DNA of 33,512 nt from a candidate division WWE3 bacterium (GTDB lineage Bacteria > Patescibacteriota > WWE3 > UBA101185 > UBA10185), in assembly GCA_014729135.1 (NCBI GenBank), contig WJKK01000001.1:695407-728918 (forward strand). Direction: 5' to 3'. Position 1 is the stretch's first letter, and each line of letters opens with the position of its first letter. The position numbers and the translations under genes were made by a program. A model generated the notes under the pieces. The model worked only from the letters and a program-made list of their open reading frames with translations. It did not search any database and had not been told where the DNA came from. This document shows positions 1,919 through 19,039 of the stretch, one piece after another.

Positions 1919-2806
1919 ATGCCTAGAAAAATCTACAAAAAGAAAAAGCCTCAAACCTTTTTCACAAAAAACGGCAAAGAACTTAAAAGCTACAAAGACT
2001 TTAACTCAGTCTTCTCGCTACAGGAGGCTACAGAGGAGTTAGCCGAAGCACTCCCCAAGGAAGAGATTAAAAACTTTGACGCTAAGGCACAATTCCAAGA
2101 AGTCACTGCTAAAGTAAAAGCAGCAACCAAACAGGTAGGTAACCAAGCACAGGAACTCCTGGAAAGAGCAAAAACTGCAGATAAAGTTAAAATATCCATG
2201 GTCTCCTTAGGAATTAATGCGGCACTGCTAATAATTGTCGGCTTTCTGGTAGTAAATAACAGACCCTCCACAAGATACACCCCTAAATACTCAATCTTTT
2301 CATCCAAACCGCTCACCTCCAGAGGAGCTTCAGCAAATCTATTTGGGGGCGATACTAGAGCAGCAACGCTTGATAAAATTTTCGGCCTTTACAACTGCCC
2401 TCTAGAAGGACATGGAGAAACTTTTATTGAAGCTGCGGACAAAAACGACATACCTTATTGGCTGGTGGCGTCCATTGCCTTTCAGGAATCCAGCTGTGGA
2501 AAAAATACACCTAAATTAAAGGCACCGGGACAAGAAGATGTCACCGATCCTAACGAGCTGGAATTTATTGAAAGCTACAATGCTTGGGGATGGGGCGTGT
2601 GGGGCAAAAACCTGCGTACCTTTGAAAGTTGGGATGAAGGAATTAATCGAGTCTCGGAATACTTAGGCGATACCTTCTTTTCTAAAGGTATAACAAACAC
2701 CTGCGAGATTATGAAAATTTACACTCCACCTTCTGACGGCTCTTGGTGCAAGGGAGTTAATTATTTTGGAAATATGATCCAGAATTATTCATCTCCTGAA
2801 GATTGA
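1919..2806 (+). CDS. Membrane-anchored protein with a C-terminal putative peptidoglycan-hydrolase-like domain (paralog of 3035..3595)
   Basis: K-rich N-terminus, one TM (ISMVSLGINAALLIIVGFLVV), then YWLVASIAFQESSCGKNTP...YNAWGWGVWGKN...YTPPSDGSW. This domain is shared with the next gene. The ES motif is reminiscent of lytic transglycosylase catalytic Glu-Ser. Confidence 0.6.
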   Translation: MPRKIYKKKKPQTFFTKNGKELKSYKDFNSVFSLQEATEELAEALPKEEIKNFDAKAQFQEVTAKVKAATKQVGNQAQELLERAKTADKVKISMVSLGINAALLIIVGFLVVNNRPSTRYTPKYSIFSSKPLTSRGASANLFGGDTRAATLDKIFGLYNCPLEGHGETFIEAADKNDIPYWLVASIAFQESSCGKNTPKLKAPGQEDVTDPNELEFIESYNAWGWGVWGKNLRTFESWDEGINRVSEYLGDTFFSKGITNTCEIMKIYTPPSDGSWCKGVNYFGNMIQNYSSPED

Positions 2807-2904
2807 GCTTCGATTTAGTCTTAGCAAGATTCCACAAACCCACAAATCTTCTCTTTATTTTGCCCTTTATATAGCAACCTATAACTTGAGAAAGCGGTAA
2901 GTAA

Positions 2905-2913
2905 TGGTATAAT
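2905..2913 (+). promoter_or_regulatory. Extended -10 promoter (TGgTATAAT) followed by an approximately 115-nt structured leader
   Basis: tggtataat at 2905-2913. The leader contains an 8-bp stem aaatcccc (2958-2965) / ggggattt (3003-3010) followed by T residues. Confidence 0.4.
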
Positions 2914-3034
2914 AATCAGGTGTGTAAAAAAGGGCACAAACCCTTAGTACAGCACACAAATCCCCTTGTTTAAAGCATTTAAAGCCTATCTGGCTGTTTT
3001 GCGGGGATTTTTACCTAAAACTTAAGAAATTACT

Positions 3035-3595
3035 ATGACTAAAGTAAAAAGTGCCCACAACCTAATTGTGGGACTCTTCCTTTTAGCTTTTATCCTTTCA
3101 CTACAGGTTTCTAAGCCTAGTGAGGCTAAAAGCACTATAGCTAAAGGAAAAGAGGAAAAAAGAATAGAAAAAACACATGAAATTACCTTTACTACAGTAA
3201 ATAGGGTAGAGGTACTGAAGAAATTCCTGGAAAAGTATAACTCCCCTCTAGCAGAGGAGGCTGAAACTTTTGTAAGAGTTGCAGATGAAAAAAACCTGGA
3301 TTACAGGTTGCTACCTGCTATTTCTTGTATGGAATCTACATGTGGTAAGTTCACCCCTCAGGGAAGCTATAACGCTTGGGGATGGGGTATTTATGGCACT
3401 AATATGATTACTTTTAATTCTTGGGAAGAGGCTATAGAAACTGTAGGGGAGGGTATTGCTAAAAACTATGCAGCTAATGGTCTAAATACTCCCGAGGAGA
3501 TGGCTCCTGTTTATACACCTCCCAACTCTGTGAACTGGAGTAACGGTGTGCGCTTTTTTATGAATCAGATGGATGAAATTGCCTTAGATAGTTAA
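3035..3595 (+). CDS. Secreted putative peptidoglycan-hydrolase-like protein (paralog of the C-terminal domain of 1919..2806)
   Basis: Signal peptide-like N-terminus (LIVGLFLLAFILSLQVSKPSEA). Carries YRLLPAISCMESTCGKFTP...YNAWGWGIYGTN...YTPPNSVNW, colinear with the upstream paralog. Confidence 0.6.
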   Translation: MTKVKSAHNLIVGLFLLAFILSLQVSKPSEAKSTIAKGKEEKRIEKTHEITFTTVNRVEVLKKFLEKYNSPLAEEAETFVRVADEKNLDYRLLPAISCMESTCGKFTPQGSYNAWGWGIYGTNMITFNSWEEAIETVGEGIAKNYAANGLNTPEEMAPVYTPPNSVNWSNGVRFFMNQMDEIALDS

Positions 3596-6304: not shown

Positions 6305-6900
6305 TGAACCAAAACTCACTAGTACCAATAGTTGTAGAAAAAAACGCCCAAGGAAATGAGCGTTCCTACGACATTTACTCCCGATTATTAAAAGACTTCA
6401 TAGTTTTTGTCACCGGACCCATCGAAATGGGCATGGCAAACACTTTTATTGCCCAAATGCTCTACTTAGAAAGCGAAGATCCTGAAAGACAAATTAACGT
6501 TTACATCAACTCTCCCGGAGGCGTCGCCTATGCGGGAAGAGCTATGTACGACACCATTCGCCATGTTAAAAACCCTGTAAGCACCATTAACGTAGGCCTT
6601 GCAGCTTCAGCAGGCGCCATGCTTTTGGCAGGAGGCAACGAAGGACTCCGTTATGGATTGCCGGGTAGTTTTACAATGATTCATCAGGTTTTAGGTGGAG
6701 TTGAAGGGCAGGCAACGGATGTGGAAATTGAGGCTCGTCATATGTTAAATTTGCGAAAACAGTATGCTCAGATTATTGCGGATAGAACAGGGCAAGATTT
6801 GAAGAAGGTTCAGGATGATATTGAGCGCAATAATTGGATGGATGCGGAGGAGTCTCTGAATTACGGTATAATCGATAAGATTATGGAACCTAAGGATTAG
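6304..6900 (+). CDS. clpP: ATP-dependent Clp protease proteolytic subunit with Asn in place of the catalytic Asp
   Basis: YDIYSRLLKD and YINSPGG are present. The Ser is in GLAASAG and the His in MIHQ. The Asp position (RDNF in S. aureus and B. subtilis ClpP) reads RNNW. The start overlaps the tig stop (ATAATG). Confidence 0.9.
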   Translation: MNQNSLVPIVVEKNAQGNERSYDIYSRLLKDFIVFVTGPIEMGMANTFIAQMLYLESEDPERQINVYINSPGGVAYAGRAMYDTIRHVKNPVSTINVGLAASAGAMLLAGGNEGLRYGLPGSFTMIHQVLGGVEGQATDVEIEARHMLNLRKQYAQIIADRTGQDLKKVQDDIERNNWMDAEESLNYGIIDKIMEPKD

Positions 6901-6976
6901 GGCTCTTAGCTCAGCTGGTTAGAGCGCATCAGTGACATTGATGAGGTCACAGGTTCGAGTCCTGTAGAGCCCACCA
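6900..6976 (+). tRNA. tRNA-Val (anticodon GAC), CCA encoded
   Basis: Acceptor GGGCTCT/AGAGCCC. D arm GCTC-AGCTGGTTA-GAGC. Anticodon arm CATCA-GTGACAT-TGATG. T arm ACAGG-TTCGAGT-CCTGT. The first base is the last base of the clpP stop codon. Confidence 0.9.
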
Positions 6977-7068
6977 TTCAATCGTTTCAAATTGCAAGTT
7001 AAGGCAAACTAAAAGAACAGGCAACAATTACTAACATGTTAGAATATATGCCTAGAAATATTCTAATA

Positions 7069-7077
7069 TGATAGAAT
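7069..7077 (+). promoter_or_regulatory. Extended -10 promoter (TGaTAGAAT), 6 nt before the ATG
   Basis: tgatagaat at 7069-7077 and ATG at 7084. This implies a leaderless transcript. Confidence 0.45.
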
Positions 7078-7083
7078 ATATTC

Positions 7084-8346
7084 ATGCAGCGTTATTTTCA
7101 CGTTAAAAACCCCTGGTGGGAAAACAAATCCTTTAACACGGGAATAAAAAGACCCTACTACATTAAAAAACTCCAAAAAAACCTAAAGCAAGATTTGATG
7201 CAAATAATCACAGGTCTAAGAAGAGTAGGGAAAAGCACGATTGCCCTCCAACTAATAAATTCCATGATAAATGAAAATAAAATGGATCCCCAAAAAATAC
7301 TCTTCTTTTCCGTTGAAGAGCCCATAATTAAAGATACTCCAATAATAAAGATAATCAACGAATTTAGAGCAGAAAAAAATCTTAAAACCAATACTAAAAT
7401 TCATGTCTTCATAGACGAAATACAATTCAGAGAAGATTGGGAAAGAGAGATTAAGTCCCTTTACGATACTGAAAATATAAAATTCATACTCACAGGATCC
7501 TCTGCAATGCTTCTTTCAGAAAAGCTATCATATCTGACAGGACGCTATTTAAAAACGCAAATATATCCCCTAAATTTTGAAGAGTATCTAAATTTTAAAA
7601 AGGTTAAGACATCCAAAACAAACGAGCATCTTCTAAAAAAAGCGGCAAAAAATTTCCTTAAAACAGGAGGAATGCCTGAATTTGTATTAAAAAATCCCGA
7701 CAGATATCTAGAAACAACAGTAGAAAGCATCCTATTTAAGGATCTGGTTTCAAAATTTAAGCTTCGTAACCCTAAAGTTCTAACAGATCTTTTGTACTTA
7801 TTAGCTGACAGAGTGGGAACCACTTCAAGTGGAACAAAACTTTCAAATGTTTTGGAAATAAACAAAGATACTGTCATGACGTACCTCAACTATCTAAATA
7901 AAACTTTTATAACAGCAGAGCTGCCAAACTACACAACGTCAAGAAATAAAGAACTTTACAACCCGGCGAAAATTTTCTTTCAAGACACCGGAATAGCAAA
8001 CACATATGCAAGTAAATTTAATTATGGGGCTTTGGCGGAAAATGCAATTTACAATAAAATATCTCAAGAAATCGGGGAGGAGATGAGAGTAAAACTAGGC
8101 TACTGGTACGAGGAAAAGTCTGAAATTGATTTTATTTTACAGAGAAAGAAAAAGGTTACTGTAATAGAATCTAAAATGGTTAATACAATAGAGAACATAA
8201 ACTTTAAACCTTTGAGAAACCTGTTAAAGGATCAAAATGCGAATGAGATTATTTATGTCACAGAGGGCCTGGGGGGAATGGAAACCGTGGATAAGGCGGA
8301 TGTAAATTTCATTCCCTTGTATAAATTTTTGAAAGAGCCCCTCTAG
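7084..8346 (+). CDS. AAA-family ATPase (AAA_14 + DUF4143-type, COG1373-like)
   Basis: Walker A GLRRVGKST and Walker B-like HVFIDEIQ. The length and C-terminal region are typical of this widespread family of uncharacterised ATPases. Confidence 0.7.
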   Translation: MQRYFHVKNPWWENKSFNTGIKRPYYIKKLQKNLKQDLMQIITGLRRVGKSTIALQLINSMINENKMDPQKILFFSVEEPIIKDTPIIKIINEFRAEKNLKTNTKIHVFIDEIQFREDWEREIKSLYDTENIKFILTGSSAMLLSEKLSYLTGRYLKTQIYPLNFEEYLNFKKVKTSKTNEHLLKKAAKNFLKTGGMPEFVLKNPDRYLETTVESILFKDLVSKFKLRNPKVLTDLLYLLADRVGTTSSGTKLSNVLEINKDTVMTYLNYLNKTFITAELPNYTTSRNKELYNPAKIFFQDTGIANTYASKFNYGALAENAIYNKISQEIGEEMRVKLGYWYEEKSEIDFILQRKKKVTVIESKMVNTIENINFKPLRNLLKDQNANEIIYVTEGLGGMETVDKADVNFIPLYKFLKEPL

Positions 8347-9516
8347 ATGAATTCCGCAGGGATGAAAACCATAGGTATAGACGCACGTTTCTGGGGAGAG
8401 GCGGGTCCTGGGAGATATACAAAAGCTCTAATTGAGCATCTGGAAAAAGCGGATACTAAGAACAAATACCTTATTTTTTTGCGCAAAAAAGGATTTGAAA
8501 GTTACACTCCCCAAAACTCCAACTTCAAAAAAGTCCCGGCACACTATAAGTGGTACTCCTTTGAAGAACAAACAACCTATTTAATAAAACTCTTAAAATA
8601 CAAACCGGATCTTTACTACGTTCCCCACTTCAACGTTCCTATTTTATATCCGGGAACCTTAGTAACGGCAATTCCGGATATTATCATGCACAAGTTCAGC
8701 ACCAATCGAGCAACAACCCATACTAGCGTGAGATTCCTTATTAAAAAACTTGCATACCATTTGGCGATGTTTGTCGCTGTAGTACGCTCCAAAAATATAA
8801 TAGTGCCTACAAACGTTGTTAAAAAGGACTTTTTAGAGTTTTATCCGTTTTTAAAACCCGAAAAAATTGTTGTAGCTCCGGAGGGTATAGATCCTGATTT
8901 TACAGTAGACACTTCACCGGAATTTGAGAAAAAAACTTTGGAGAAATATGGGATTAAAAAGCCTTATTTGCTTTATGTAAGCAGCATGTACCGACATAAA
9001 AATGTTTACAATTTAATTAAGGCTTTCCGGATTTTGCAGGAGAAGTTTGATTTTAAGGGACAACTTGTTTTGGTAGGGAAGAGGGATTATTTTTCGGAAA
9101 AAGTAGGGGAGTATGTCGCTAAGAAAGGGCTAGAAGGAGATGTTATTTTACCGGGACTTCAAGAATATGTCGGAGATCCGGAGGTTGTGGCTCTGCGAAA
9201 AAATGCAAAGCTTTATGTTTTCCCCTCTCTACAGGAGGGTTTTAGCCTAACTCCTCTGGAGGGGATGATTTGGAATTTGCCGGCTGTAATTTCCGATATC
9301 CCTTGCCACAAAGAGGTTTATGGAGATGCGGTGGCGTACTTTAATCCGTTGAACCCTGAGAAGATTGCGGAGGCTATAAATAGAGTGTTACAAGATGAGG
9401 CTCTCCAGAAGGAACTTGTCAAGAGGGGGCTCAATAAAATAAAGGAGTATGATTGGCAAAAAACAGCTGATATAACTCTGGAGGTATTTGAGAAGGTTCT
9501 TGAAGATAGGAATTGA
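8347..9516 (+). CDS. Glycosyltransferase family 4 (GT-B fold)
   Basis: The C-terminal half has the E-x7-E region (PSLQEGFSLTPLEGM). An alternative start is Met at 8362 (MKTIGID). Confidence 0.8.
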   Translation: MNSAGMKTIGIDARFWGEAGPGRYTKALIEHLEKADTKNKYLIFLRKKGFESYTPQNSNFKKVPAHYKWYSFEEQTTYLIKLLKYKPDLYYVPHFNVPILYPGTLVTAIPDIIMHKFSTNRATTHTSVRFLIKKLAYHLAMFVAVVRSKNIIVPTNVVKKDFLEFYPFLKPEKIVVAPEGIDPDFTVDTSPEFEKKTLEKYGIKKPYLLYVSSMYRHKNVYNLIKAFRILQEKFDFKGQLVLVGKRDYFSEKVGEYVAKKGLEGDVILPGLQEYVGDPEVVALRKNAKLYVFPSLQEGFSLTPLEGMIWNLPAVISDIPCHKEVYGDAVAYFNPLNPEKIAEAINRVLQDEALQKELVKRGLNKIKEYDWQKTADITLEVFEKVLEDRN

Positions 9517-9634: not shown

Positions 9635-9664
9635 TTGACAAACGTGGACAAATAATATTAAAGT
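9635..9664 (+). promoter_or_regulatory. Candidate sigma70-like promoter (TTGACA ... TAAAGT/TATTAA)
   Basis: A perfect -35 ttgaca lies at 9635-9640. A-T-rich -10 candidates sit 15-18 nt downstream. Confidence 0.4.
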
Positions 9665-9749
9665 AAATATGTGCTGCCCCCACATGGTTGGGGGCATTTA
9701 AAACAATATGACAAGGACATGCCCGTCAACAAAATCTAAATAGTTTATC

Positions 9750-9773
9750 AGCAGGCTTTAAGCCTGCTTTTTT
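9750..9773 (+). terminator. Intrinsic terminator (8-bp stem, 3-nt loop, T5)
   Basis: agcaggct tta agcctgct ttttt. It lies 234 nt after the GT4 stop and 110 nt before the tasA-like start. Confidence 0.7.
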
Positions 9774-9882
9774 GTTGAAAAGTTTTAGGCAAACCTTACA
9801 AAGAGGCGAAGTAAGCAAAAGCACAAAAGGGCAGATTTGAAAAATAGTATTAACTTGAAACTCTAAAAGGAGGTGAAGAAGA

Positions 9883-10959
9883 ATGAAAAAGATTATAGCT
9901 AGCATAGCAACTATAGCTGTATTTGCTTCTGTAACTTATTTGGGAACTTCTGCACTATTTTCCGACACAGAAGAATCCTTGGACAATACTTTCACAACAG
10001 GAAGTATTGATATTTCAGTAGACGGTGAAAATCCTTGGGCACATTCGGAAGAGTACAATCTTACTGATATGAAGCCCGGTTACACCGACTACATGGAATT
10101 TGTAATCCATAACGTGGGAACAAATCCTGCTGAAATTACCAAGACGCTTTCAGACTTCACCGGATATGATGTAGTTACAACAGAACCCGAATGTGATGCT
10201 GAAAGTGGAACTGAGTGGACCTGGGATGAAGCATCAATGACCGGAGTATGTACCGGAAACACAGCAGTAACAGACTTGGAAAACGTTATCGACTACGACC
10301 TAATCGTAGAAGTTTATGACGTTAACCCTGATGAAGATGAAACTGCAGAACCTGTATGGATGCAGACCATCTACACAGAGGACCAGCCTGCTGATATGGC
10401 TCTCTTAGACGACCAGGCTATCCACTTGGGCATGCTTCCTGTAGGCTACTACATGAAAGTAACGCAAAGTTATCACATGGATGTAAACGCAGGAAACGAG
10501 TACCAAGCAGATGAGCTCTCCTTTGATATTCAACTTGCTGCAAATCAGCTACTGGCTGAAAATACAGTTAAGTTAGAAAATAAGGATGGAGATGATGACT
10601 GGATGCTAATCATGGATGACGCTATTGAAGGAACGTTGACCTATCAACTAAGAAGCCCAACTTTTGAGTTTGAATTTGATGGAACAGCTCCTTTAGCAAG
10701 CCGCAATTACGTTCTTGCAGCAGGATATGACGCTGACACTAACGTTGACACAAAACTAGGTGAAGGCACATCCGCAGCAGACGGAACCATTACCATTACA
10801 GGTGATGTTGAACTCGGCAAAGACATGAAAGACGTTAAAGTCTGGTTAGTACCTGCAGAAAACTGGACCGATGGAACAGGAATGACCGGCTGGGCCGGAA
10901 CACCTGGAAACTTCCTTTGGGAAACCAGCTTAATGTGGTACGAAGACACTAACAACTAG
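9883..10959 (+). CDS. TasA/camelysin-like secreted protein with SipW-cognate signal peptide (copy 1)
   Basis: The signal peptide ends in GTSALFSDTEESLDNTFTTGSIDISVDG. A strong SD (aaggaggtg) sits 7 nt upstream. MKVTQSYHMDVNAGNEYQADELSFDIQL is shared with copy 2. Confidence 0.8.
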   Translation: MKKIIASIATIAVFASVTYLGTSALFSDTEESLDNTFTTGSIDISVDGENPWAHSEEYNLTDMKPGYTDYMEFVIHNVGTNPAEITKTLSDFTGYDVVTTEPECDAESGTEWTWDEASMTGVCTGNTAVTDLENVIDYDLIVEVYDVNPDEDETAEPVWMQTIYTEDQPADMALLDDQAIHLGMLPVGYYMKVTQSYHMDVNAGNEYQADELSFDIQLAANQLLAENTVKLENKDGDDDWMLIMDDAIEGTLTYQLRSPTFEFEFDGTAPLASRNYVLAAGYDADTNVDTKLGEGTSAADGTITITGDVELGKDMKDVKVWLVPAENWTDGTGMTGWAGTPGNFLWETSLMWYEDTNN

Positions 10960-10975
10960 TTTAGTGACTTCTTTG

Positions 10976-11002
10976 GAGGTTCAATTAAAAAAATTGAACC
11001 TC
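10976..11002 (+). terminator. 11-bp hairpin after the first tasA-like gene (possible partial terminator)
   Basis: gaggttcaatt aaaaa aattgaacctc followed by ttat. Confidence 0.4.
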
Positions 11003-11010
11003 TTATAGAA

Positions 11011-11682
11011 GTGAACGAGATAAGTAAATTGGGTAAAAATAGGCAAAACAAAATGAAAACACTTAACAACCTAAAAAAACTAATAGGCACCTCCTACTGG
11101 ATCTTTGTAGGAATAATCCTCTTTTTTGGCCTACTAACAACTCTATCCTTAAGGGAGCTTCCCGGAGGAATTAGAGCATTTGTTGTTCAATCAGGATCCA
11201 TGGAACCTGCCATAAAAACCGGATCCGTTGTAGTAATAAAGCCTAAAGAAACTTACAAAATAGACGAAGTTATCACTTTTAAATTAAGACCCGATAGCAG
11301 CACAAAAACACCTAAAGATCTGGTTACACATAGAATCATTGAAAAAGCAGAGGATGAAGGCCGAAACACTTACCTAACAAAAGGAGATGCAAATGAGGAT
11401 GCCGATAGAGAAATGATCCGTGAAGATCAAATTTTGGGAAGGGTCTTTGTAAGTGTACCTTTAGTAGGGAAAATCCTGGCATTTTCGCAAACACAAGTAG
11501 GATTTATACTTTTGATAATACTTCCGGCCATTTTGATAATCTATACAGAACTTCAAAAAATCTTTAACAATCTCTTTAAGAAAAACTCCAAGGAAGGTGA
11601 CACCAAAAAAGAAACCCAAGCAAACACAGAAGACAACAATATTAAAAAAGAAACAAAAACCAAAGGAGGTGGAAATAAATGA
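11011..11682 (+). CDS. sipW: Signal peptidase I, archaeal/ER type (SipW-like, S26B)
   Basis: N-terminal TM, then the catalytic-Ser motif VQSGSMEPAIKTGSVVVIKP. It also has LVTHRII, KGDAN, a C-terminal TM and a K-rich tail. The track start is GTG 11011 and an alternative ATG is at 11053. Its stop overlaps the next ATG (ATGA). Confidence 0.85.
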   Translation: MNEISKLGKNRQNKMKTLNNLKKLIGTSYWIFVGIILFFGLLTTLSLRELPGGIRAFVVQSGSMEPAIKTGSVVVIKPKETYKIDEVITFKLRPDSSTKTPKDLVTHRIIEKAEDEGRNTYLTKGDANEDADREMIREDQILGRVFVSVPLVGKILAFSQTQVGFILLIILPAILIIYTELQKIFNNLFKKNSKEGDTKKETQANTEDNNIKKETKTKGGGNK

Positions 11683-12794
11683 AAAAGATATTAACAAGCT
11701 TACTAATAATTGCCGCAGTAGGAACATTCGGATACATCACAACAAGCGCATACTTTAGCGACACTGAAACCTCCGAGGAAAACACATTTACTGCCGGCAC
11801 TATAAACATTGCCGTTGACGGAGAGAGCCCCTGGACAACAACAGGAACCTTCTCTATTGACGATATGAAACCCGGATACGTATTTTACAGAGACGCCGAG
11901 ATTACAAACATTGGAAACAATCCTGCGGACATCTGGAAGAGACTATCTAACATGGCTTATGCTGACGGCGAAACTTCCGATGCAGAAGAGCCCGGCTCTG
12001 ATAACAACATTGGAGCAGTCATTCGCTACGACATGAGCATAGATGACGAGGTTTTGTTCGATGTAGATGCGGGATACGTCCTAGATGAGGGCCCACATCA
12101 ACTTGCAGAAACTACCGCGGTTGAGGGACTTTACATGTATTTAGGCCGCTTAGAGCCCGGAGAATCCATGACCGTAACACAAAGCTATCACATGGACCCA
12201 TCCGTTGGGAACTGGGCGCAAGGAGACATAATGACCTTGGATGTTGAGTTTTATGCTCAACAAACATCAGGAGGCGCTACAGCTCCTTCACCGGAACTGG
12301 AAGCTCTTGCAAAGGACAATCTGGACTACTTGGATATAGCAGCCTCAGACACAGCCGACATGCAACTTCATGATGCAAAAGGATGGCTGGATTATGCTCA
12401 GGGAGGCTATGGCGGACGTGACGGCGATGAAACTATCGCTATGGTAATGGGAGAAAACGGAGTCTGTGATGAAACCACAGAAAACGCAACTTTCATGATG
12501 TATGCAGGTGAAGCCACCGCTAACAACCTGGTACTTCGCCACTATGATGGGCAATCAGACGACTCCTTTGAGGTCTTTGTTGATGGAAATTCAGTTGGAA
12601 CCTATGCAAATCAGTACAACTCTGAAGATCCTTCTCACTGGATAACAGCAACATTCCCTGTCGACTTCACAGGATATGCTGAGGTGGAAATAGTAGCCAC
12701 AGGAGAACCCGGAAGCCTATGTGCTGCCGGAACTGACGGAACAGATTACTGGTATGGACAAGTTGCTCTAAATTGGGCTAAGATTACTGAGTAA
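11679..12794 (+). CDS. TasA/camelysin-like secreted protein with SipW-cognate signal peptide (copy 2)
   Basis: TTSAYFSDTETSEENTFTAGTINIAVDG. MTVTQSYHMDPSVGNWAQGDIMTLDVEF. It has an extra C-terminal domain relative to copy 1. Confidence 0.8.
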   Translation: MKKILTSLLIIAAVGTFGYITTSAYFSDTETSEENTFTAGTINIAVDGESPWTTTGTFSIDDMKPGYVFYRDAEITNIGNNPADIWKRLSNMAYADGETSDAEEPGSDNNIGAVIRYDMSIDDEVLFDVDAGYVLDEGPHQLAETTAVEGLYMYLGRLEPGESMTVTQSYHMDPSVGNWAQGDIMTLDVEFYAQQTSGGATAPSPELEALAKDNLDYLDIAASDTADMQLHDAKGWLDYAQGGYGGRDGDETIAMVMGENGVCDETTENATFMMYAGEATANNLVLRHYDGQSDDSFEVFVDGNSVGTYANQYNSEDPSHWITATFPVDFTGYAEVEIVATGEPGSLCAAGTDGTDYWYGQVALNWAKITE

Positions 12795-12814
12795 CCTCTA
12801 GTCGGTTTTTAGGG

Positions 12815-12836
12815 AGCCGGAGAAGTTTTTCCGGCT
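12815..12836 (+). terminator. Hairpin after the second tasA-like gene
   Basis: agccgga (12815-12821) pairs with tccggct (12830-12836), with an 8-nt T-rich loop. Confidence 0.3.
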
Positions 12837-12880
12837 TCCAATAAAGCTTACTAAGTAAAAAAACAAATATAAGGAGAATT

Positions 12881-14440
12881 ATGAATAAAACGATAAAAAA
12901 CATAATGTTAGTTTTAACTGCCTTGGGTGTTTTCAGCACTCTACAGCCTCAATATACTTGGGCAAGAGAGCCAAATATAAAATTTACAGACAAGGAAGAT
13001 CAAGAGGATATTTTGTTAGAAACTGAAAGTCTGGACATGGAAATGAGAGGAGGCCAGGACAACTTCGTAGAGGGAGACGATCTTTTCATAGGTGATACAA
13101 CGGCCAGGGACGTCTATATAAAAAATACAGGAACAACAGATTTCAAATATAAATCTTTTATCAAAGTAGGAGATGAAACTGACGAAAACCTTTGTGAAAA
13201 TTTAGAGCTCAAGGTTTGGTATAACAGATTTGATGAGAGCGGAAATAAACACGCAGAACTTAAGTACACAGGATCTTTGATGGATTTTGAAATGAATTTT
13301 GAGGGGGAGGACGAGGAACTTCAAATACCCAACGGTTACAGCTACGAAGAAAATCCAATGTATGCAGAAAAAGAACACTGGCTGTATTACAGAATTCAGG
13401 TCCCGGAGGAAGCTCCTTATGAAGTCTCACAAAAAGCATGTGACTTTGAAATCGTAACAATTGCATGGCAACAAGAGTTGATAGATGAGAATCAGGGCTT
13501 CTGGGATATCGAAAGTCTGCAATCCTCAATAACCACGGGAGATTGGACACCCTCTGCTCCCACGGGACTTAAAATCCTAAATCACAAAGAGGAAGAACTT
13601 GACTGTTCGGATCCGGAAAACCCTGCCATAACAAACAATAGAAACATTACTATAGACTGGACAGATAATCCTGAATTCGACTTAGAACATTATGACCTCG
13701 GAATCAAGGATAAGTTGGTACACGACGATTTCATAGAAGAATCTTTGAGACCAGCCACCGTAAGAGACGAGGATGGAGATTACAAATACAGAGTAAGGGC
13801 GGTAGACGAGGGCGGAAACATTAGCGAATGGTCTGATTGGTGTTATCTCATTTTAGACAGAACTATAGATGACGCCGAAGAGGGGGAAGTATTGATTAAT
13901 GAAGTCATGTGGTCGGGGTCCTCGGAAAATACGTCAGATGAGTGGATTGAGCTTTACAATGAGAGTGATAGAGAAATAAAACTTAAGAACTGGACCCTGT
14001 CAATTGGAGACGAAACAGAAATTACGTTGCCAGAAGATGAAGTAATCGAAGCACACAGCTATTTCCTAATCTCCAAGTACGATGAGGAAGATGGGAATTC
14101 AGCACTAAATGTGACACCCGATCTAGTTGCAGAAGAATTAAACTTAGAGGACGCCGGAAGCCGCCTAACTCTGAAAGATGCCTTCAACAACGAAATAGAC
14201 AGCATAGATGCATCGTCTGAATGGCCTGCGGGAGAAGTAAAAGAAGATCCCGAAATTCCTACAACATACCACTCCATGGAAAGAAGTGACGATCCCTCCA
14301 ACTGGCACACTTGTAAAGACAGCAGCTGCAATGATGCCATTTATTGGGATGTAACAACCTCGGAAGGAGAAGATCCAAACGAGGTGGGCACCAACTATGG
14401 AACGCCCGGATCAGAAAATTCACCGGAAGGGAGTAACTAA
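12881..14440 (+). CDS. Secreted multidomain protein: TasA-like N-domain, Fn3-like domain, lamin tail domain (LTD)
   Basis: Sec-type signal (..YTWA/RE). FIGDTTARDVYIKNTGTTDF...ACDFEIVTIAWQQ resembles the TasA-like sandwich. YKYRVRAVDEGGNISEWS is Fn3-like. VLINEVMWSGSSENTSDEWIELYNESDREIKLKNWTL is a typical LTD. Confidence 0.7.
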   Translation: MNKTIKNIMLVLTALGVFSTLQPQYTWAREPNIKFTDKEDQEDILLETESLDMEMRGGQDNFVEGDDLFIGDTTARDVYIKNTGTTDFKYKSFIKVGDETDENLCENLELKVWYNRFDESGNKHAELKYTGSLMDFEMNFEGEDEELQIPNGYSYEENPMYAEKEHWLYYRIQVPEEAPYEVSQKACDFEIVTIAWQQELIDENQGFWDIESLQSSITTGDWTPSAPTGLKILNHKEEELDCSDPENPAITNNRNITIDWTDNPEFDLEHYDLGIKDKLVHDDFIEESLRPATVRDEDGDYKYRVRAVDEGGNISEWSDWCYLILDRTIDDAEEGEVLINEVMWSGSSENTSDEWIELYNESDREIKLKNWTLSIGDETEITLPEDEVIEAHSYFLISKYDEEDGNSALNVTPDLVAEELNLEDAGSRLTLKDAFNNEIDSIDASSEWPAGEVKEDPEIPTTYHSMERSDDPSNWHTCKDSSCNDAIYWDVTTSEGEDPNEVGTNYGTPGSENSPEGSN

Positions 14441-16732
14441 ATGAAATTTACAAATAAAACAACAACAAAAAGAGTTTTGGGCTTAATTTTGATGCTGGGT
14501 GGAATATTCAGCTTAAGTGGCAGAGTTTATGCCGAAAACATAACCGTAACCTGCAACACAAATCCCGGAGACTGCGTAATGACTCCTTCTGCAGGAGCAG
14601 CACTATTTGCCGACACCGAAAACGACAACATAAACATGTTACCCGGACAAACCTCCCACAGAACAATTGATCTTATAAATAACTCCTCTGACACATGCGA
14701 AATTGTTTTAGGTGATGTAACAAACGTAAGACTAATAGGGGACACTCCCGAAACTTTTCCTTATGAACTTTGGACCGCTTTATCAGAAGGAGGACTTGCT
14801 TTTTACGGAGGACTTTCGTCAGGACAAGCTACAAGCACAAAAAGCTTAGGCGATTTATTTGACGGAGGGGACTTACCTATAACTAGCGTTCCCGGAGGAG
14901 ACAGCAAAACAGTGGACTGGCACGTAACGTTTAACCCTTTAGCCGGAAACGCTTACCAAAGCGCAGAAACTCGCTTTGACTTTGACATGCACTTTATGTG
15001 CGATGAAATTATGGAAACAACGGAATTTACCATCGCAAAGTTCACAAGCAGCTGGCCAACAAATCAAAATCCGGGAGACACCGTTACCTACACTTTAACA
15101 ATTCAGGCACCTGAAGAAAGAATCTACGATGTTGTGCTAACCGACCTTCCTCCTGAGACTTTTGAGTATGTAAATGGAAACTGGAACATTGCCTCAAACA
15201 TGCGCCTTTTAGCAGTAGGAGAGCCTACATATGCTTCTCCCGGTCAGTGGGATTTAGGGATGATGGAAGCCGGAGAAGTTTTAACGCTTACCTATGACGC
15301 TAAAATTTCTGACACTACCGAAGATGGGATTTATCCGGATTTAGCCTATGCTACGGGAAGAACTGCGGAAGAAGAGTTGGTTTATGCAGATTCTGTAGAT
15401 TCAGGATTTGAAATTAACGGAGGAGTTGTGGATGAAAACTTTGTAGGAACTCAAGTGAAAGTGAATCAGGAGCCTCCCGCTGAGGAAGCTGATATAGAAG
15501 TGGAAACGGAGGAGATTGAGGAGGAGGTTGAGGTTGAAGGCGAGGTCTTAGGATCTTCGGATCAGAGGCTTCCCGCTACAGGAGCTAGTTTATTTATTGG
15601 ATTAACCTGGATGCTTTCGATTTTAACGGGAGCAATGCTAATTTTTGTGAATAAGTTTAAAAAAGCAAAGGCTTTTAGTAAGGCGCCAATAATAGTAGTA
15701 GTAGTAGTAGTAGCAGCCATCTTCCTGGGAGTGGTGGTTTCGGGAAGAGCACATGCGCAAACGAGCACATTTGTCCTAAGAGTATCCGAGCCAGAAACTC
15801 CAACTAACAAGGAATTTAACGTTGAATTTGTAGTACTGGATCCTGCAGGTGACTCCGGTGAAAACATAACTGTAACGTGTGACCTTAAGAAACCGGGACA
15901 AACCTTCTCTACTTTAGATACGGCAAACTTAATTAAGGGAGGAGACTCCGGACTTTGCAAAATTTCAGAAAGCTTGTTAACAACAGATGGAACTTATGAA
16001 GTGAAAATTACGGCACAAAATTCCGGTGCGAGCAAGGCCGACACTGTATCCGTAGTCTACGACGGCAACGGACCCGGCAAACCCAAATGGATTGAAAAAG
16101 ACAAAAAATCCAGCTGTGAATACGACGTAAAATTTAAAACTTCCGATGACGGCGGTGAAACCTCCTATGTAGAAGTGTACAGATCCGACGACAAAGAATT
16201 CACCGTAAGCCCCTCCAGCAGAGTCAGAACCGTTTCAATAGGCTCCAACGAGGAACATGAGTTTACTCACAATTTGTATGGAGGCGACTGCGGAAGTTCT
16301 TACTATGCAGTTAGAGCTTTTGATGACGCCGGCAACTATTCGGATGTTCGCGTTGAAGAAGTTGAAGACATTGTGATTAAGGAGGTTTTTGTGGGGTCTG
16401 ATGAGGGAGGCGAGACAGAAGAAGGTGGAGAAGGCGCGGAATCCGGTGCAATCTTTTTGGAAGGAGGCGCCGGCTTGACTGAAGGAGAATTGGAAGGTGA
16501 GGTAGGCTTGGAAGAGGGAGGAGAAGCCGGAGAGGTGGCAGGTGAAACTACAGAAACTGAGGAGGGTGAAAGTGGGGAAGAGGCCAGTGGCGAAACTGCA
16601 GAAAATGAAGAAGGTGTTTTGGGTACTGCTGACAAGAAATTCCCCTGGTTCTTACTAGTTCCTGTTATACTTGTGGCCGGTTTTGTACTTTTAAGATCCA
16701 AGCGCAAAAAAGATGGAATCAGTTTCTCCTAA
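14441..16732 (+). CDS. Bipartite surface protein: TasA-like + DUF11-like domains, internal LPATG sorting signal, second signal-like segment, Fn3-like domain, G/E-rich linker, C-terminal TM anchor
   Basis: Signal peptide ..RVYA/EN. LPATG is at aa 377-381 (nt 15569-15583), followed by a hydrophobic stretch and KFKKAK. Then come IIVVVVVVAAIFLGVVVSGRAHA/QT, YYAVRAFDDAGNYSDV and the C-terminal FPWFLLVPVILVAGFVLLRSKRKK. Confidence 0.75.
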   Translation: MKFTNKTTTKRVLGLILMLGGIFSLSGRVYAENITVTCNTNPGDCVMTPSAGAALFADTENDNINMLPGQTSHRTIDLINNSSDTCEIVLGDVTNVRLIGDTPETFPYELWTALSEGGLAFYGGLSSGQATSTKSLGDLFDGGDLPITSVPGGDSKTVDWHVTFNPLAGNAYQSAETRFDFDMHFMCDEIMETTEFTIAKFTSSWPTNQNPGDTVTYTLTIQAPEERIYDVVLTDLPPETFEYVNGNWNIASNMRLLAVGEPTYASPGQWDLGMMEAGEVLTLTYDAKISDTTEDGIYPDLAYATGRTAEEELVYADSVDSGFEINGGVVDENFVGTQVKVNQEPPAEEADIEVETEEIEEEVEVEGEVLGSSDQRLPATGASLFIGLTWMLSILTGAMLIFVNKFKKAKAFSKAPIIVVVVVVAAIFLGVVVSGRAHAQTSTFVLRVSEPETPTNKEFNVEFVVLDPAGDSGENITVTCDLKKPGQTFSTLDTANLIKGGDSGLCKISESLLTTDGTYEVKITAQNSGASKADTVSVVYDGNGPGKPKWIEKDKKSSCEYDVKFKTSDDGGETSYVEVYRSDDKEFTVSPSSRVRTVSIGSNEEHEFTHNLYGGDCGSSYYAVRAFDDAGNYSDVRVEEVEDIVIKEVFVGSDEGGETEEGGEGAESGAIFLEGGAGLTEGELEGEVGLEEGGEAGEVAGETTETEEGESGEEASGETAENEEGVLGTADKKFPWFLLVPVILVAGFVLLRSKRKKDGISFS
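15693..15713 (+). repeat. Trinucleotide repeat (TAG)7 / (GTA)6 inside the surface-protein ORF
   Basis: aatagtagtagtagtagtagtagca encodes the VVVVVV run of the internal hydrophobic segment. Confidence 0.9.
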
Positions 16733-17357
16733 GGGCTTTAAAAAAGCAGGCCTTATATTTTTGGGCTTAGGACTCTTGGCAGGCCTGGTTCAATATTTTC
16801 CTGTTATTAAGGCTGAAATAGGATATCAATTTAAGGGAAACGCAAAAGAAACTGCGGAAGTTCGCTTAAGTGCTCCTTTAATAACCAATCAAGAGGAAGG
16901 GGCCCCGAAAGATTCCACTAAAGTCATTATCCCGGAAAGCAAAAGCTTTGGCCTGGTTATAAAAAAACTGGGAATTAACACTCCGATAATTGCTCAAGTG
17001 GATCCGTTTGATTCTAAAGTCTATCAAGAGGCTCTTGCTAAGGGAATTGCACATGCTAAAGACACTGCTCTGCCTAACGCAGGAGGAAATACAGTACTTT
17101 TTGCACATTCTTCGGATAACTTTTACAATGCTAATCGATATAATGCGGTCTTTTACCTATTAAATAAGCTGGAAACGGGGGATGAGATTCATGTGGCTTT
17201 TGAGAATAAGCTTTACGAGTATGAGGTGGCTGAAAAGAAGGTGGTTTCTCCGGAGGAGATGAGTTATATGGAGTCTTCTAAGGAGTCTAAGTTGACGTTA
17301 ATTACATGCTGGCCTCCCGGAACTACGTTGAAGAGGCTTGTTGTGGTTGCAAAATAG
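16713..17357 (+). CDS. Sortase family transpeptidase
   Basis: N-terminal TM, His in VLFAHS, catalytic Cys in LTLITCWP, and Arg in KRLVVVA. It overlaps the LPATG protein gene by 20 nt. Confidence 0.85.
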   Translation: MESVSPKGFKKAGLIFLGLGLLAGLVQYFPVIKAEIGYQFKGNAKETAEVRLSAPLITNQEEGAPKDSTKVIIPESKSFGLVIKKLGINTPIIAQVDPFDSKVYQEALAKGIAHAKDTALPNAGGNTVLFAHSSDNFYNANRYNAVFYLLNKLETGDEIHVAFENKLYEYEVAEKKVVSPEEMSYMESSKESKLTLITCWPPGTTLKRLVVVAK

Positions 17358-17374
17358 TCGAAAAATAAAAAATA

Positions 17375-17399
17375 GAGGCTCCTTTAAAATGGGAACCTC
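17375..17399 (+). terminator. Weak hairpin after the sortase gene
   Basis: gaggctcc / ggaacctc pairs 7 of 8 positions with a 9-nt loop. There is no clear T-run. Confidence 0.25.
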
Positions 17400-17450
17400 C
17401 AAATTTGCACACACAAAACCCCCACTAGTATAATCACTATACTAACCAAA

Positions 17451-18269
17451 ATGACCAAAAAAGCTGCCTACATCAAAACCCTAATAACCGCCTCCACCAT
17501 CTTTGTAGTAAGCTACTTTCTAACCCACTCCCTCATAAACTACTTTGAAACTCAAGGATACTTTGCGCTCAACTTTAACTTAATCTCCGGTGTAGGCTTA
17601 TTAATCTTAGGGTTAACCTATGCCGTAAGCCTTTCGTCACCTGCTTGGGGAGAATGGAGCCAGTTTATAATCGTTCCTTTACCTTTTATTTTGGGAGTTT
17701 ACTTAAATTTAGTCACTTTGGAACCGGCAAATGCTTTAGTTTTTTCCATTTTAATTTTTTTAATCTTGAGCTTCTTTATAGAAAAATCCATTAACTTGGA
17801 GCAGTTGCTAGCTAAAAACATTCCTGTAGTTTTTTTGCGGCCGGGAATAAAAGGATTACTGCTCTGTATTTCAATGGTGGCAGCTACAGTGGTGCTTTTA
17901 AATCCAAGGGATAAAGCTCAGGAGTTAACCGAGACCGTACAAGAGGCGGCTAATTCGCGCGTTTCTAAGTTTTTTGATAACGGGATTTTTACGGAAAATC
18001 CTGAAGTAGGGGCTTTGCTGGAATATACTTCATTGGAACAAAGTTTAGGGGAGGAGATTACTACGCAGGTTAAGAGTGCTATTGAGCCTTATCGGCATTT
18101 GATTAATATTTTTATGGCGGTGTTTATCTTTTTGGCTATGCAAGGATTTAATGCTGTTGTTTATTTGGTTTATTCTATTAGTATAGGGTTTTTGTTTTGG
18201 ATTGCACGTAAAACGGGCTTTGTAAAGAAAAAAACGGAGTTGATTGAAAAAGAGGTTTTAAGGTTTTAA
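17451..18269 (+). CDS. Polytopic membrane protein, hypothetical
   Basis: 272 aa with at least 6 hydrophobic spans. No family recognised. Confidence 0.6.
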   Translation: MTKKAAYIKTLITASTIFVVSYFLTHSLINYFETQGYFALNFNLISGVGLLILGLTYAVSLSSPAWGEWSQFIIVPLPFILGVYLNLVTLEPANALVFSILIFLILSFFIEKSINLEQLLAKNIPVVFLRPGIKGLLLCISMVAATVVLLNPRDKAQELTETVQEAANSRVSKFFDNGIFTENPEVGALLEYTSLEQSLGEEITTQVKSAIEPYRHLINIFMAVFIFLAMQGFNAVVYLVYSISIGFLFWIARKTGFVKKKTELIEKEVLRF

Positions 18270-18938
18270 AGCTTGGTCAATGGTGAGGGAGTTTTCTAAA
18301 GTGTAAGGGCCTACTTTTGTACGAACCAGATTAGACAGCACCGCACCCATCCCCAAATCTTTACCAACATCATAAACTAAACTTCTAATGTATGTTCCTT
18401 TACTGCAATTTACACGCCCTTTAATGAAAGGTAATTCTACCCCCTTTCCCGTAACGGGAAATTGTTTTGTATCAACATATTCTAATAATTCCAAGTCGTA
18501 AATTGTAACCTCCTTGGTTGGAATCATATCCTCCTTTAATTTGCCCTCCCGAGCATACTTATACAACGGTTTTCCTTTGTGTTTTACTGCCGAAAAAGGA
18601 GGTACTTTTTGTTGAATTGTACCTTTATAAGAAGAAAAAGCTTCCAAAACTTCATTTTCAGAGGGAGTAGTAAAACCCTCAGTAAAATCCAAAGGTCCTT
18701 CCAAGTCGTAAGTAGGGGAAGTAACTCCTAAAAACATCTCAAATTCATATTCTTTAGGCATTTGCATAAACTTTTGCTGTTTTTTAGTATCTTTATTAGT
18801 GAGAATAATTAAAACTCCCGTAGCTAAGGGATCTAAAGTTCCTGCATGACCTACTTTTTTAATACCTAAACCCGAACGGATTTTCTTAACCACGTCAAAA
18901 CTGCTCCATTCTAGAGGTTTGTTTATGTTTAAAATCAT
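18258..18938 (-). CDS. truB: tRNA pseudouridine(55) synthase
   Basis: KVGHAGTLDPLATGVLIIL contains the catalytic Asp motif. The start was moved to Met at 18938 (MILNINKP). Its 3' end overlaps the convergent membrane-protein gene by 12 nt. Confidence 0.9.
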   Translation of the reverse strand: MILNINKPLEWSSFDVVKKIRSGLGIKKVGHAGTLDPLATGVLIILTNKDTKKQQKFMQMPKEYEFEMFLGVTSPTYDLEGPLDFTEGFTTPSENEVLEAFSSYKGTIQQKVPPFSAVKHKGKPLYKYAREGKLKEDMIPTKEVTIYDLELLEYVDTKQFPVTGKGVELPFIKGRVNCSKGTYIRSLVYDVGKDLGMGAVLSNLVRTKVGPYTLENSLTIDQALKP

Positions 18939-19039
18939 AGAAGCATTATAGCAGTATGATAACTTAACCAAAATCAAGATCTAAGCTCTAATCAAGCTCT
19001 AAAGAGGTAGGAGGATGAAGTATCATACTCACACAAAAG

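Follow-up and report, generated by a model that had tools for sequence, protein, structure and literature searches.

The genome of a candidate division WWE3 bacterium (Patescibacteria) carries an operon in which genes for TasA-like proteins and a SipW-like signal peptidase are followed by genes for an LPXTG protein and a sortase. It lies in a 33,512-nucleotide (nt) stretch of DNA, hereafter the window (from the 864-kb contig WJKK01000001.1 of assembly GCA_014729135.1), and consists of six genes, g1 to g6. The operon is a conserved composite of two separable modules, module A (g1-g4) and module B (g5-g6). With modest confidence, we consider it probable that the two work together as one surface-fibre operon, producing a TasA-type fibre with a sortase-anchored base subunit. 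This integrated reading builds on the genes present and the homologies of their domains, on a gene order that is conserved, on fused and split forms of g5 being equivalent, and on the anchoring bias of its N-terminal domain (g5N). A first-pass annotation, made from the sequence without database searches, had described six co-directional, partly overlapping genes, and all six open reading frames (ORFs) are indeed found on the plus strand. The g2 and g3 genes share an ATGA overlap (11679-11682, 4 nt), g5 and g6 overlap by 20 nt (16713-16732), and the g4 stop abuts the g5 start. The features of the operon are as follows (aa, amino acids; LTD, lamin-tail domain; CBM, carbohydrate-binding module; Ig, immunoglobulin; TM, transmembrane helix; arrows here and below mark predicted cleavage):

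g1, 9883-10959, plus strand, 358 aa: TasA/camelysin subunit 1; SipW-type signal and an additional domain at the C-terminus (residues ~225-358)
g2, 11011-11682, plus strand, 223 aa, GTG start: SipW-like S26B (ER/archaeal-type) signal peptidase I, between g1 and g3
g3, 11679-12794, plus strand, 371 aa: TasA subunit 2 with a SipW-type signal, a TasA jelly-roll (~40-200) and a CBM-like beta-sandwich (~215-371)
g4, 12881-14440, plus strand, 519 aa: secreted protein with a TasA-like N-domain (~27-215), an Fn3-like domain (~225-325), an LTD (333-443) and a Cys-containing tail
g5, 14441-16732, plus strand, 763 aa: protein of three parts, given in the next three lines
g5 N-terminal part, 14441-15583, plus strand: Sec-type signal, disulfide hairpin, TasA-like domain (~59-192), DUF11 (207-306), acidic linker and LPATG
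g5 junction, 15584-15757, plus strand: TM1 (sorting-signal helix), basic loop KFKKAK, and TM2 (signal-peptide-like) ending GRAHA↓Q
g5C, 15758-16732, plus strand: two Ig/Fn3-like domains, Gly/Glu-rich linker, C-terminal TM and basic tail
g6, 16713-17357, plus strand, 214 aa: sortase with an N-terminal TM anchor, H132, C199 (in TLITC) and R208

SipW-like peptidase and TasA-like subunits

Both g1 and g3 match Peptidase_M73 (PF12389; 7e-11, 42.7 bits and 4e-11, 43.5 bits, respectively; cut-off 22.5), the match covering model positions 20-194 of 196 in g3 and only the N-terminal 78 positions in g1. The two proteins are paralogues (32% identity over 300 residues, E-value = 4e-34), and each has a SipW-cognate motif at residue 21, namely, GTSALFSDTEES in g1, where the predicted cleavage is ...GTSA↓LFSDTEE, and TTSAYFSDTETS in g3. 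The cognate_SipW model TIGR04088 (cut-off 19) is matched with 19.4 bits by g1 and 26.9 bits by g3. The g2 protein has the SGSMEP motif at residue 61, with Ser63 in it, and His107 in VTHRI; it has two TMs, according to hydropathy, and a Lys/Glu-rich C-terminal tail. It matches sigpep_I_arch TIGR02228 (2e-30, 105.7 bits; cut-off 51.85). Since its score against the SipW equivalog NF046067 is below the cut-off (7e-29, 100.8 bits; cut-off 190), we refer to g2 as SipW-like and not as a SipW equivalog. Taken together, TIGR04088, TIGR02228 and SGSMEP bear out the first-pass description of two SipW-cognate proteins flanking an S26B peptidase, and the profile searches proposed there place g1 and g3 at or above cut-off for both PF12389 and TIGR04088.

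The structure predicted for g3 by AlphaFold2 (AF2; pLDDT 85) consists of two domains. In Foldseek searches the N-domain matches the TasA fibre (8aur_A; E-value = 2.8e-4, probability 1.0, TM-score (target) 0.42), and the C-domain (~215-371) matches CBM6/35/36-type modules and similar lectin-like sandwiches. Using the single g3 sequence, phmmer found no match among PDB sequences, whereas a profile of 57 sequences of the g3 family matched B. subtilis TasA structures (8aur, 4e-6; 5of1, 6e-6). The donor segment of g3 (residues 28-37) is unstructured in the AF2 monomer (pLDDT <50).

The LTD (PF00932) that had been read in g4 is supported by Pfam (3.6e-15, 56.7 bits; cut-off 34.3; residues 333-443), and so is the DUF11 domain (PF01345) of g5 (8.5e-8, 33.0 bits; cut-off 24.6; residues 207-306). 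A TasA-like signature had also been proposed for both proteins. Their N-domains have no Pfam match to PF12389 at E-value ≤ 1 and neither protein matches TIGR04088, while BLASTP of g4 and g5 against g3 and each other returned nothing significant. Profile-profile comparison with hhalign nevertheless recovers the relationship: the g4-type N-domains match a 121-sequence alignment of the TasA family with 97.4% probability (E-value = 9e-12), and 13 g5-type N-domains do so with 97.1% probability (E-value = 5.8e-11, residues 59-192). Judging from these profiles, the N-domains of g4 and g5 appear to be distant members of the TasA superfamily rather than Pfam-level ones.

Relatives of g4 retain TasA-type N-termini (…AYFSDTENS… and …YAFLNDGE…, with 'AYFSDTE' or 'AFLNDGE'), and for one of them, P0154, precomputed Pfam annotation lists PF12389 as well as LTD. 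Moreover, a SipW-type peptidase and a g4-type TasA-like/Fn3/LTD protein are encoded by one ORF in two loci (L091, 7950-10016; L007, 2316-3767), where the last TM of the peptidase apparently doubles as the signal peptide for the enzyme's own substrate (…AVSSYA↓LGLNNNE…). These fusions constitute a Rosetta-stone link. Based on the fusions and on the N-termini of its relatives, g4 is probably a SipW substrate as well, so that the 'ordinary Sec signals' ascribed by the first-pass annotation to both large proteins hold for g5 and are doubtful for g4. The g4 protein is likely a tip or adhesin subunit candidate.

Internal LPXTG signal and the g5C/sortase module

AF2 models the domains of g5 with pLDDT values of 70-88. 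The full-length model retrieved only generic tandem Ig/Fn3 and macroglobulin matches in Foldseek, and the g5N profile had no match among PDB sequences. An exhaustive phmmer search with g5N yielded 196 representatives. Among the best 150 of them, 109 have a C-terminal TM only, 24 have an LPXTG-like motif followed by a TM, and 17, mostly short, have neither. As 133 of these best 150 are thus anchored, g5N can be described as a 'tethered' TasA-like subclass. In a protein of 2,584 aa (P0249), nine separate stretches match residues 129-166 of the g5 N-domain, which suggests that part of this domain also occurs elsewhere as a tandem repeat unit.

The LPATG motif of g5 (residues 377-381, nt 15569-15583) had been noted in the first-pass annotation, and its L377, P378, T380 and G381 are invariant in 11 homologues. 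It is followed by a helix (382-408) and the basic KFKKAK, which is the layout of a sorting signal; the sorting-signal models TIGR01167 and PF00746 fall just under their cut-offs (13.4 vs 15.9 and 17.3 vs 20). The motif is, however, internal and not part of a C-terminal sorting signal, because the gene is a fusion with a membrane protein. It lies 387 residues from the C-terminus of g5; ~355 residues come after the basic tail and ~325 after TM2, the second of the two junction helices (382-408 and 416-436 in the AF2 model, in agreement with hydropathy). Ten g5 homologues with 32-57% identity retain the fused architecture. We found no literature on 'internal LPXTG' signals.

The part downstream of the junction, g5C, has no Pfam or NCBIfam family above cut-off. 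It starts with a cleavable signal and a conserved N-terminal strand (LxVRhxxPxxPTN) and contains two conserved Cys pairs, C480/C506 and C559/C617. Ala439, at position -1 of the second cleavage site of g5, is conserved to 99% among 74 sequences, and K553 to 84%. To place g5 in a wider context, we scanned GTDB species genomes for g5-like genes, called ORFs around them and searched these with the domains of the window. This yielded 76 loci (L009-L084) in WWE3, Saccharibacteria, Microgenomates and other groups, nearly all of them with a sortase gene directly downstream. Of 77 related loci, 38 encode an LPXTG protein that stops 29-44 residues past the motif and have g5C as a separate gene (310-355 aa), which typically overlaps the LPXTG gene by 8 nt. 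The two are fused in 32, namely, the window and 31 others. The split junction reads '…LPATG-helix-KMRRYHA', a stop codon, and then 'MRK-helix-VFA↓K…LSIRLEQPKTPTN'; the fused one reads '…LPATG-helix-KFKKAK-helix-AHA↓Q…FVLRVSEPETPTN'. In other words, the fused junction is the split sorting signal joined to the signal peptide of the next gene, so both arrangements would give the same two mature products after cleavage by sortase and signal peptidase. Sequencing read-through of two genes as the origin of g5 is ruled out by the conservation of the fused frame in the 10 homologues and the 31 loci.

These loci belong to a widespread module of Patescibacteria composed of a giant DUF11-repeat LPXTG protein (up to ~3,300 aa; e.g. 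L022, 1742-12266, and L052, 1343-12128), a two-Ig membrane protein of ~320 aa, and a sortase. We found no publication on this LPXTG/g5C/sortase module. With DUF11, LPATG and g5C in g5, followed by g6, the window encodes a member of it. Most module loci encode the giant repeat adhesin and have neither a TasA-like domain nor SipW nearby, whereas in the window the LPXTG protein is short and the TasA-like N-domain has been swapped in. Internal sorting signals are thus frequent in this module of the candidate phyla radiation (CPR), which classical sortase biology does not foresee.

The identification of g6 as a sortase, proposed in the first pass from H, TLITC and R, is secure: it matches Pfam Sortase PF04203 (2.5e-25, 89.1 bits; cut-off 26.6), TIGR01076 (59.7 bits; cut-off 39.35) and sortases in PDB (E-value = 1e-9), and the triad residues are present. 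It fits no curated class among NF033745-8, the scores being 71.7 bits for class C (cut-off 160), 61.5 for D (165), 45.7 for E (160) and 31.7 for F (166). The sub-threshold similarity to class C, together with a weak match of the DUF11 region of g5 to the isopeptide-forming fimbrial domain TIGR04226 (E-value = 0.017), would agree with polymerisation of g5 by the sortase into a classical covalent pilus of the Gram-positive type, the TasA-like proteins then being unrelated secreted proteins or proteases, as the name 'camelysin' implies. We consider this highly improbable, because the locus has a single LPXTG protein, which moreover is fused to a membrane protein, the class C score is 71.7 bits against a cut-off of 160, and the TasA family is now established as fibre-forming and not as a peptidase (PMC11580942, PMC9674648). 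A class C pilus in particular is ruled out by the class cut-off and the presence of only one substrate.

A different role for g6 would be to ligate the LPAT-terminated part of g5 onto g5C, through a conserved Lys or the new N-terminus, rather than onto peptidoglycan, giving a covalent membrane-tethered stalk by analogy with class C pilin ligation. Linkage of the LPXTG protein, g5C and the sortase is obligate, by fusion in 32 loci and by the overlap of typically 8 nt in 38, which points to 1:1 stoichiometry. Class C is the best class model for g6, though sub-threshold; K553 is well conserved; and g5C has an architecture like that of PamR, the proposed membrane anchor of Pam pili (10.64898/2026.03.03.709456), with V. 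cholerae RbmA among the Foldseek matches of the g5 model. On the other hand, no pilin motif was recognised, although no rigorous search for one was made, no Lys of g5C is invariant and its mature N-terminal residue varies. In addition, a class A penicillin-binding protein (PBP) is encoded in the window (25590-28283), indicating that the organism makes peptidoglycan; with peptidoglycan synthesis genes present, the default acceptor, lipid II, is available. On balance, ligation to g5C seems quite unlikely to us; g5C may instead be a scaffold. A broader proposal, which we rate as rather unlikely, is that many Patescibacteria make the LPXTG protein as one precursor with the two-Ig membrane protein, or couple the two in translation, and that the dedicated sortase acts on it as a processing transpeptidase, which would sever the adhesin or fibre base at the internal LPXTG, may ligate it to the partner rather than to peptidoglycan and, here, would anchor a TasA-type fibre. 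If true, internal-LPXTG processing would be a third, covalent way to tether donor-strand fibres, in organisms attached to other cells.

Conserved gene order and separability of the two modules

The order of one to four TasA genes, SipW, TasA-LTD, g5 with a TasA-like N-domain, g5C where it is separate, and sortase recurs in diverged Patescibacteria whose proteins are no more than 32-39% identical. The full order is present in L086, in L009, L037, L040 and L043 (WWE3), in L017 (Moraniibacteria) and in metagenomic L092-L095; L086, a close relative, does not have g3. All close relatives of the proteins come from metagenome-assembled genomes of Patescibacteria or from metagenomes. The first-pass annotation had suggested examining whether sipW and the sortase stay together in related genomes, and they co-occur in conserved order across diverged lineages rather than being scattered. 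SipW and TasA-LTD genes are found directly upstream in all four GTDB loci with a g5N-type domain and in 3 of the 72 other g5-type loci (hypergeometric p-value ~3e-5, the lineages not being independent). Among LPXTG proteins, the TasA-like N-domain is restricted to those encoded immediately 3' of SipW and TasA-LTD genes or of the deletion remnants of these genes. In L091, L090 and L008 a g5N-type protein follows SipW and TasA-LTD and ends in TMs instead of LPXTG. Directly 3' of the TasA/SipW-LTD/anchor cluster of L091, the DNA at 11047-16744 encodes a response-regulator-like protein and, in at least seven genes in a row, proteins whose N-termini resemble those of type IV pilins (KKGFTLIELL…).

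Several observations count against a single fibre system. In L086, TasA1 (2213-3244) has neither a signal peptide nor a donor segment. L001 (6057-6460, the same in L087) and L002 carry a clean deletion between about codon 4 of TasA1 and about codon 195 of the LTD gene, so that TasA, SipW and the 5' part of the LTD gene are gone; the LTD-gene product P0134 starts with MNKSSIKTIAWQ and has no signal peptide, and the DNA upstream of the deletion is the same as in L086. In all three loci (L086, L001 and L002) g5, the sortase and g7, a seventh ORF following g6, are intact. Thus, module B appears to function without module A, and it is this decay or deletion of the SipW half next to an intact sortase half in the closest relatives that makes the two modules separable. 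Furthermore, 69 of the 76 g5-type loci have no SipW nearby, and no sortase was found on the contigs of the four g3-type TasA loci that we fetched (L005-L008). As for g5 itself, g5-type proteins do not have the 'FSDTE-NTFTAGTIDI' donor and instead have a conserved disulfide hairpin (hxhxC…CxVxPS…ALF; ITVTC...C in g5) directly after the ordinary signal peptide, which is structured in the AF2 model (pLDDT ~70-78). This hairpin could self-complement the domain, which would make g5 a stand-alone adhesin. Pairing of g5 with g1, g3 or g4 is our proposal by analogy.

The intergenic DNA of two of these relatives contains, on the minus strand, a stretch resembling the 3' half of a tRNA (…TGGTGGAGGTGAGGGGAATCGAACCCC…; L001, 6277-6350; L086, ~2040-2120). 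ARAGORN makes no tRNA call for it in L001; possibly it is what remains of a tRNA at a place where DNA was once integrated or deleted.

The most serious alternative is that the operon unites two independent neighbours, a SipW/TasA-like secreted matrix or fibre (g1-g4) and a sortase-anchored monomeric adhesin, g5, which is self-complemented and never part of a fibre. The persistence of module B where module A has been deleted or decayed is what this alternative predicts, as are the g5-type loci without SipW, the TasA/SipW loci examined, most of which have no sortase, and the structured hairpin of g5 compared with the disordered donor segment of g3. It accounts less well for the fact that g5N-type domains stand only directly 3' of SipW and TasA-LTD, in an order conserved between lineages with 30-40% identity, and for g5N being a dedicated 'anchored' form of the TasA-like domain. 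In addition, the gene overlaps imply co-translation, and analogous LPXTG anchors of Clostridia are predicted to pair with fibril subunits (10.64898/2026.01.04.697558). We therefore judge independence to be unlikely, while giving it more weight than any of the other alternatives, and favour a single fibre operon.

For this single fibre operon we infer from the above the mode of polymerisation, the end of the fibre at which g5 resides, the SipW dependence of g4, the acceptor of the sortase, glycan binding and the role of g5C. In module A, g2 would remove the special signal peptides of g1, g3 and probably g4, and the freed N-terminal strands would allow head-to-tail polymerisation through the donor-strand exchange known from Bacillus TasA. 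Extra beta-sandwich domains are present at the C-termini of the subunits, CBM-like in g3, and g4, the likely tip or adhesin, adds Fn3 and LTD; with such domains the filament is expected to be adhesive and lectin-decorated. Module B is a variant of the three-part Patescibacteria module of LPXTG surface protein, g5C and dedicated sortase. The TasA-like domain of g5 would pair with the fibre by strand complementation and form its cell-proximal end. Since the canonical donor is absent from g5, it could accept a strand; in the opposite polarity, the donor could be g5 itself, with its N-terminal 'ITVTC' strand in the role that TapA plays. Presumably, g6 cuts g5 after Thr380 of LPATG and transfers the TasA-like/DUF11 part to an envelope nucleophile, most simply lipid II and hence peptidoglycan, while signal peptidase would cut after Ala439 and free g5C as a separate type-I membrane protein. 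The first-pass annotation had envisaged a TasA-type fibre with its base or tip handled by a sortase. Of the two, the base is the better reading given the tethering of g5N representatives, and the unit is conserved; its two halves, however, are separable.

Outside the six genes, two more features are relevant to the extent of the operon:

upstream leader, 9635-9778, plus strand: TTGACA/TAAAGT pair resembling a promoter, then two hairpins and a third, terminator-like one with a T-run
g7, 17451-18269, plus strand, 272 aa: polytopic membrane protein with ~6-7 hydrophobic segments (hydropathy), the seventh ORF, after g6

The leader hairpins (~9671-9700 and ~9709-9728) lie within the 366-nt gap 5' of g1, and the terminator-like hairpin with its T-run (9750-9768) lies ~100 nt 5' of the g1 ribosome-binding site. 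The first-pass annotation started the operon at 9635. This is not upheld, as position 9635 corresponds only to the promoter-like hexamer pair, with the terminator-like hairpin between it and g1. A scan for promoter and terminator consensus sequences showed no enrichment over shuffled sequences, so that the operon boundaries rest on gene spacing only. An Rfam search found no family in the leader or elsewhere in the operon, and the leader DNA does not align with the DNA upstream of the operon in relatives. It may encode a small RNA or act as an attenuator-type leader. Another promoter-like site is present upstream of g7 (17406-17434). The g7 protein has no Pfam or NCBIfam family, and a g7 gene after the sortase is confined to the closest relatives (L001, L002, L004, L086 and L088). 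Whether g7 belongs to the system is uncertain.

The operon is flanked by a family 4 glycosyltransferase (GT4) gene (8347-9516) and a convergent truB (18258-18977). Housekeeping genes make up the neighbourhood in the window: trigger factor, ClpP, threonyl-tRNA synthetase, IF3, L35, L20, PheST and the class A PBP. Variation is found in the interval from clpP and its tRNA to the GT4 gene (6900-9516 in the window, 1575-6056 in L001), which encodes an AAA_14/DUF4143 ATPase in the window (7084-8346) and small ORFs including a PemK-type toxin in L001 and L085.

Significance and comparison with known systems

Patescibacteria are ultrasmall and mostly episymbionts, a lifestyle that makes their biology dependent on attachment to host cells. 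To our knowledge, attachment in this group has so far been tied only to type IV pili and to the Pam pili described recently. The operon is a testable candidate for a third appendage, namely, a TasA-type fibre that would be decorated with lectin-like domains, tipped by an LTD-bearing protein and fixed at its base by a sortase. Sortase/LPXTG anchoring of TasA-like fibres has already been predicted in the literature, so far in silico. What is new here is the Patescibacteria context, the internal LPXTG and its fusion to g5C, the tethered g5N subclass, the TasA-LTD subunit with its SipW fusions, and the CBM-decorated subunits. The value of the locus thus lies in a clean and compact model rather than in a new principle, and its relatives provide natural 'experiments': fused versus split forms, TM- versus LPXTG-anchored bases, SipW-substrate fusions and deletion variants.

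In B. subtilis, TasA assembles by donor-strand exchange and TapA acts as a strand donor (PMC9674648, PMC10151520). The tapA-sipW-tasA operon shares with the window an S26B SipW-type peptidase gene next to TasA-family subunits with a special signal; the g3 profile matches 8aur and 5of1, and the fold matches the TasA fibre. We propose for g5 a role like that of TapA, a TasA-related accessory at the cell-proximal end acting through a strand or domain (PMC10151520). Unlike in B. subtilis, the anchor in the window has an LPXTG signal and its own sortase, and the subunits are extended by CBM-like, Fn3 and LTD domains. The TasA-like proteins number two to four and fall into three subclasses, the organism belongs to Patescibacteria, a TapA homologue is absent, and g2 is under the SipW equivalog cut-off. 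In B. cereus, assembly of TasA/CalY is explicitly sortase-independent. Homologues of TasA in Patescibacteria have been noted earlier (PMC9245690).

The first-pass statement that no known system combines the two machineries was too strong, as clusters of TasA-superfamily genes with LPXTG anchors and sortases have been reported in silico (PMC11580942; 10.64898/2026.01.04.697558). In most C. perfringens strains an LPXTG-bearing BsaB homologue adjoins srtB, and an srtB mutant of strain 13 still formed BsaA oligomers (PMC11580942). The AbpX preprint describes AlphaFold3 (AF3) predictions of donor-strand oligomers of an LPXTG anchor and a fibril subunit, as well as sets of tip adhesin and membrane anchor in archaeal Tafi loci (10.64898/2026.01.04.697558). 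The Clostridia clusters (the C. perfringens bsa locus and the abpX-like one of Clostridium amylolyticum) resemble the window in combining, within one neighbourhood, genes for a signal peptidase, several paralogous TasA-like proteins, a sortase and an LPXTG protein. They belong to Firmicutes, and what is known of them comes only from the analysis of gene neighbourhoods and from AF3 models. In contrast to them, the LPXTG of the window is internal owing to the fusion of the anchor with another membrane protein, the sortase gene overlaps that of its substrate, and the set includes an LTD-bearing TasA protein.

The Pam pili of Ca. Mycosynbacter amalyticus are thin donor-strand-exchange filaments of an episymbiotic CPR bacterium (10.64898/2026.03.03.709456). 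Compared by description only, their PamR anchor has a layout in common with g5C (two FnIII domains, a C-terminal TM and an N-terminal strand). Pam pilins are reported to have ordinary Sec signals and membrane-anchored PapD-like chaperones, with no SipW, TasA fold or sortase described (10.64898/2026.03.03.709456), whereas the window, again by description, has SipW/TasA-type subunits and no chaperone-like genes; g5C alone is PamR-like, and in architecture only. Because the described components do not match, the Pam system is ruled out as an explanation of the operon.

Finally, covalent pili of the SpaA type share with the window a dedicated sortase beside an LPXTG substrate that contains Ig-like (DUF11/CnaB-like) domains. 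They differ in that the window has a single LPXTG protein, no recognised pilin motif and a sortase that fails the class C model, and in that its fibre is proposed to polymerise non-covalently, by strand exchange of the TasA type.

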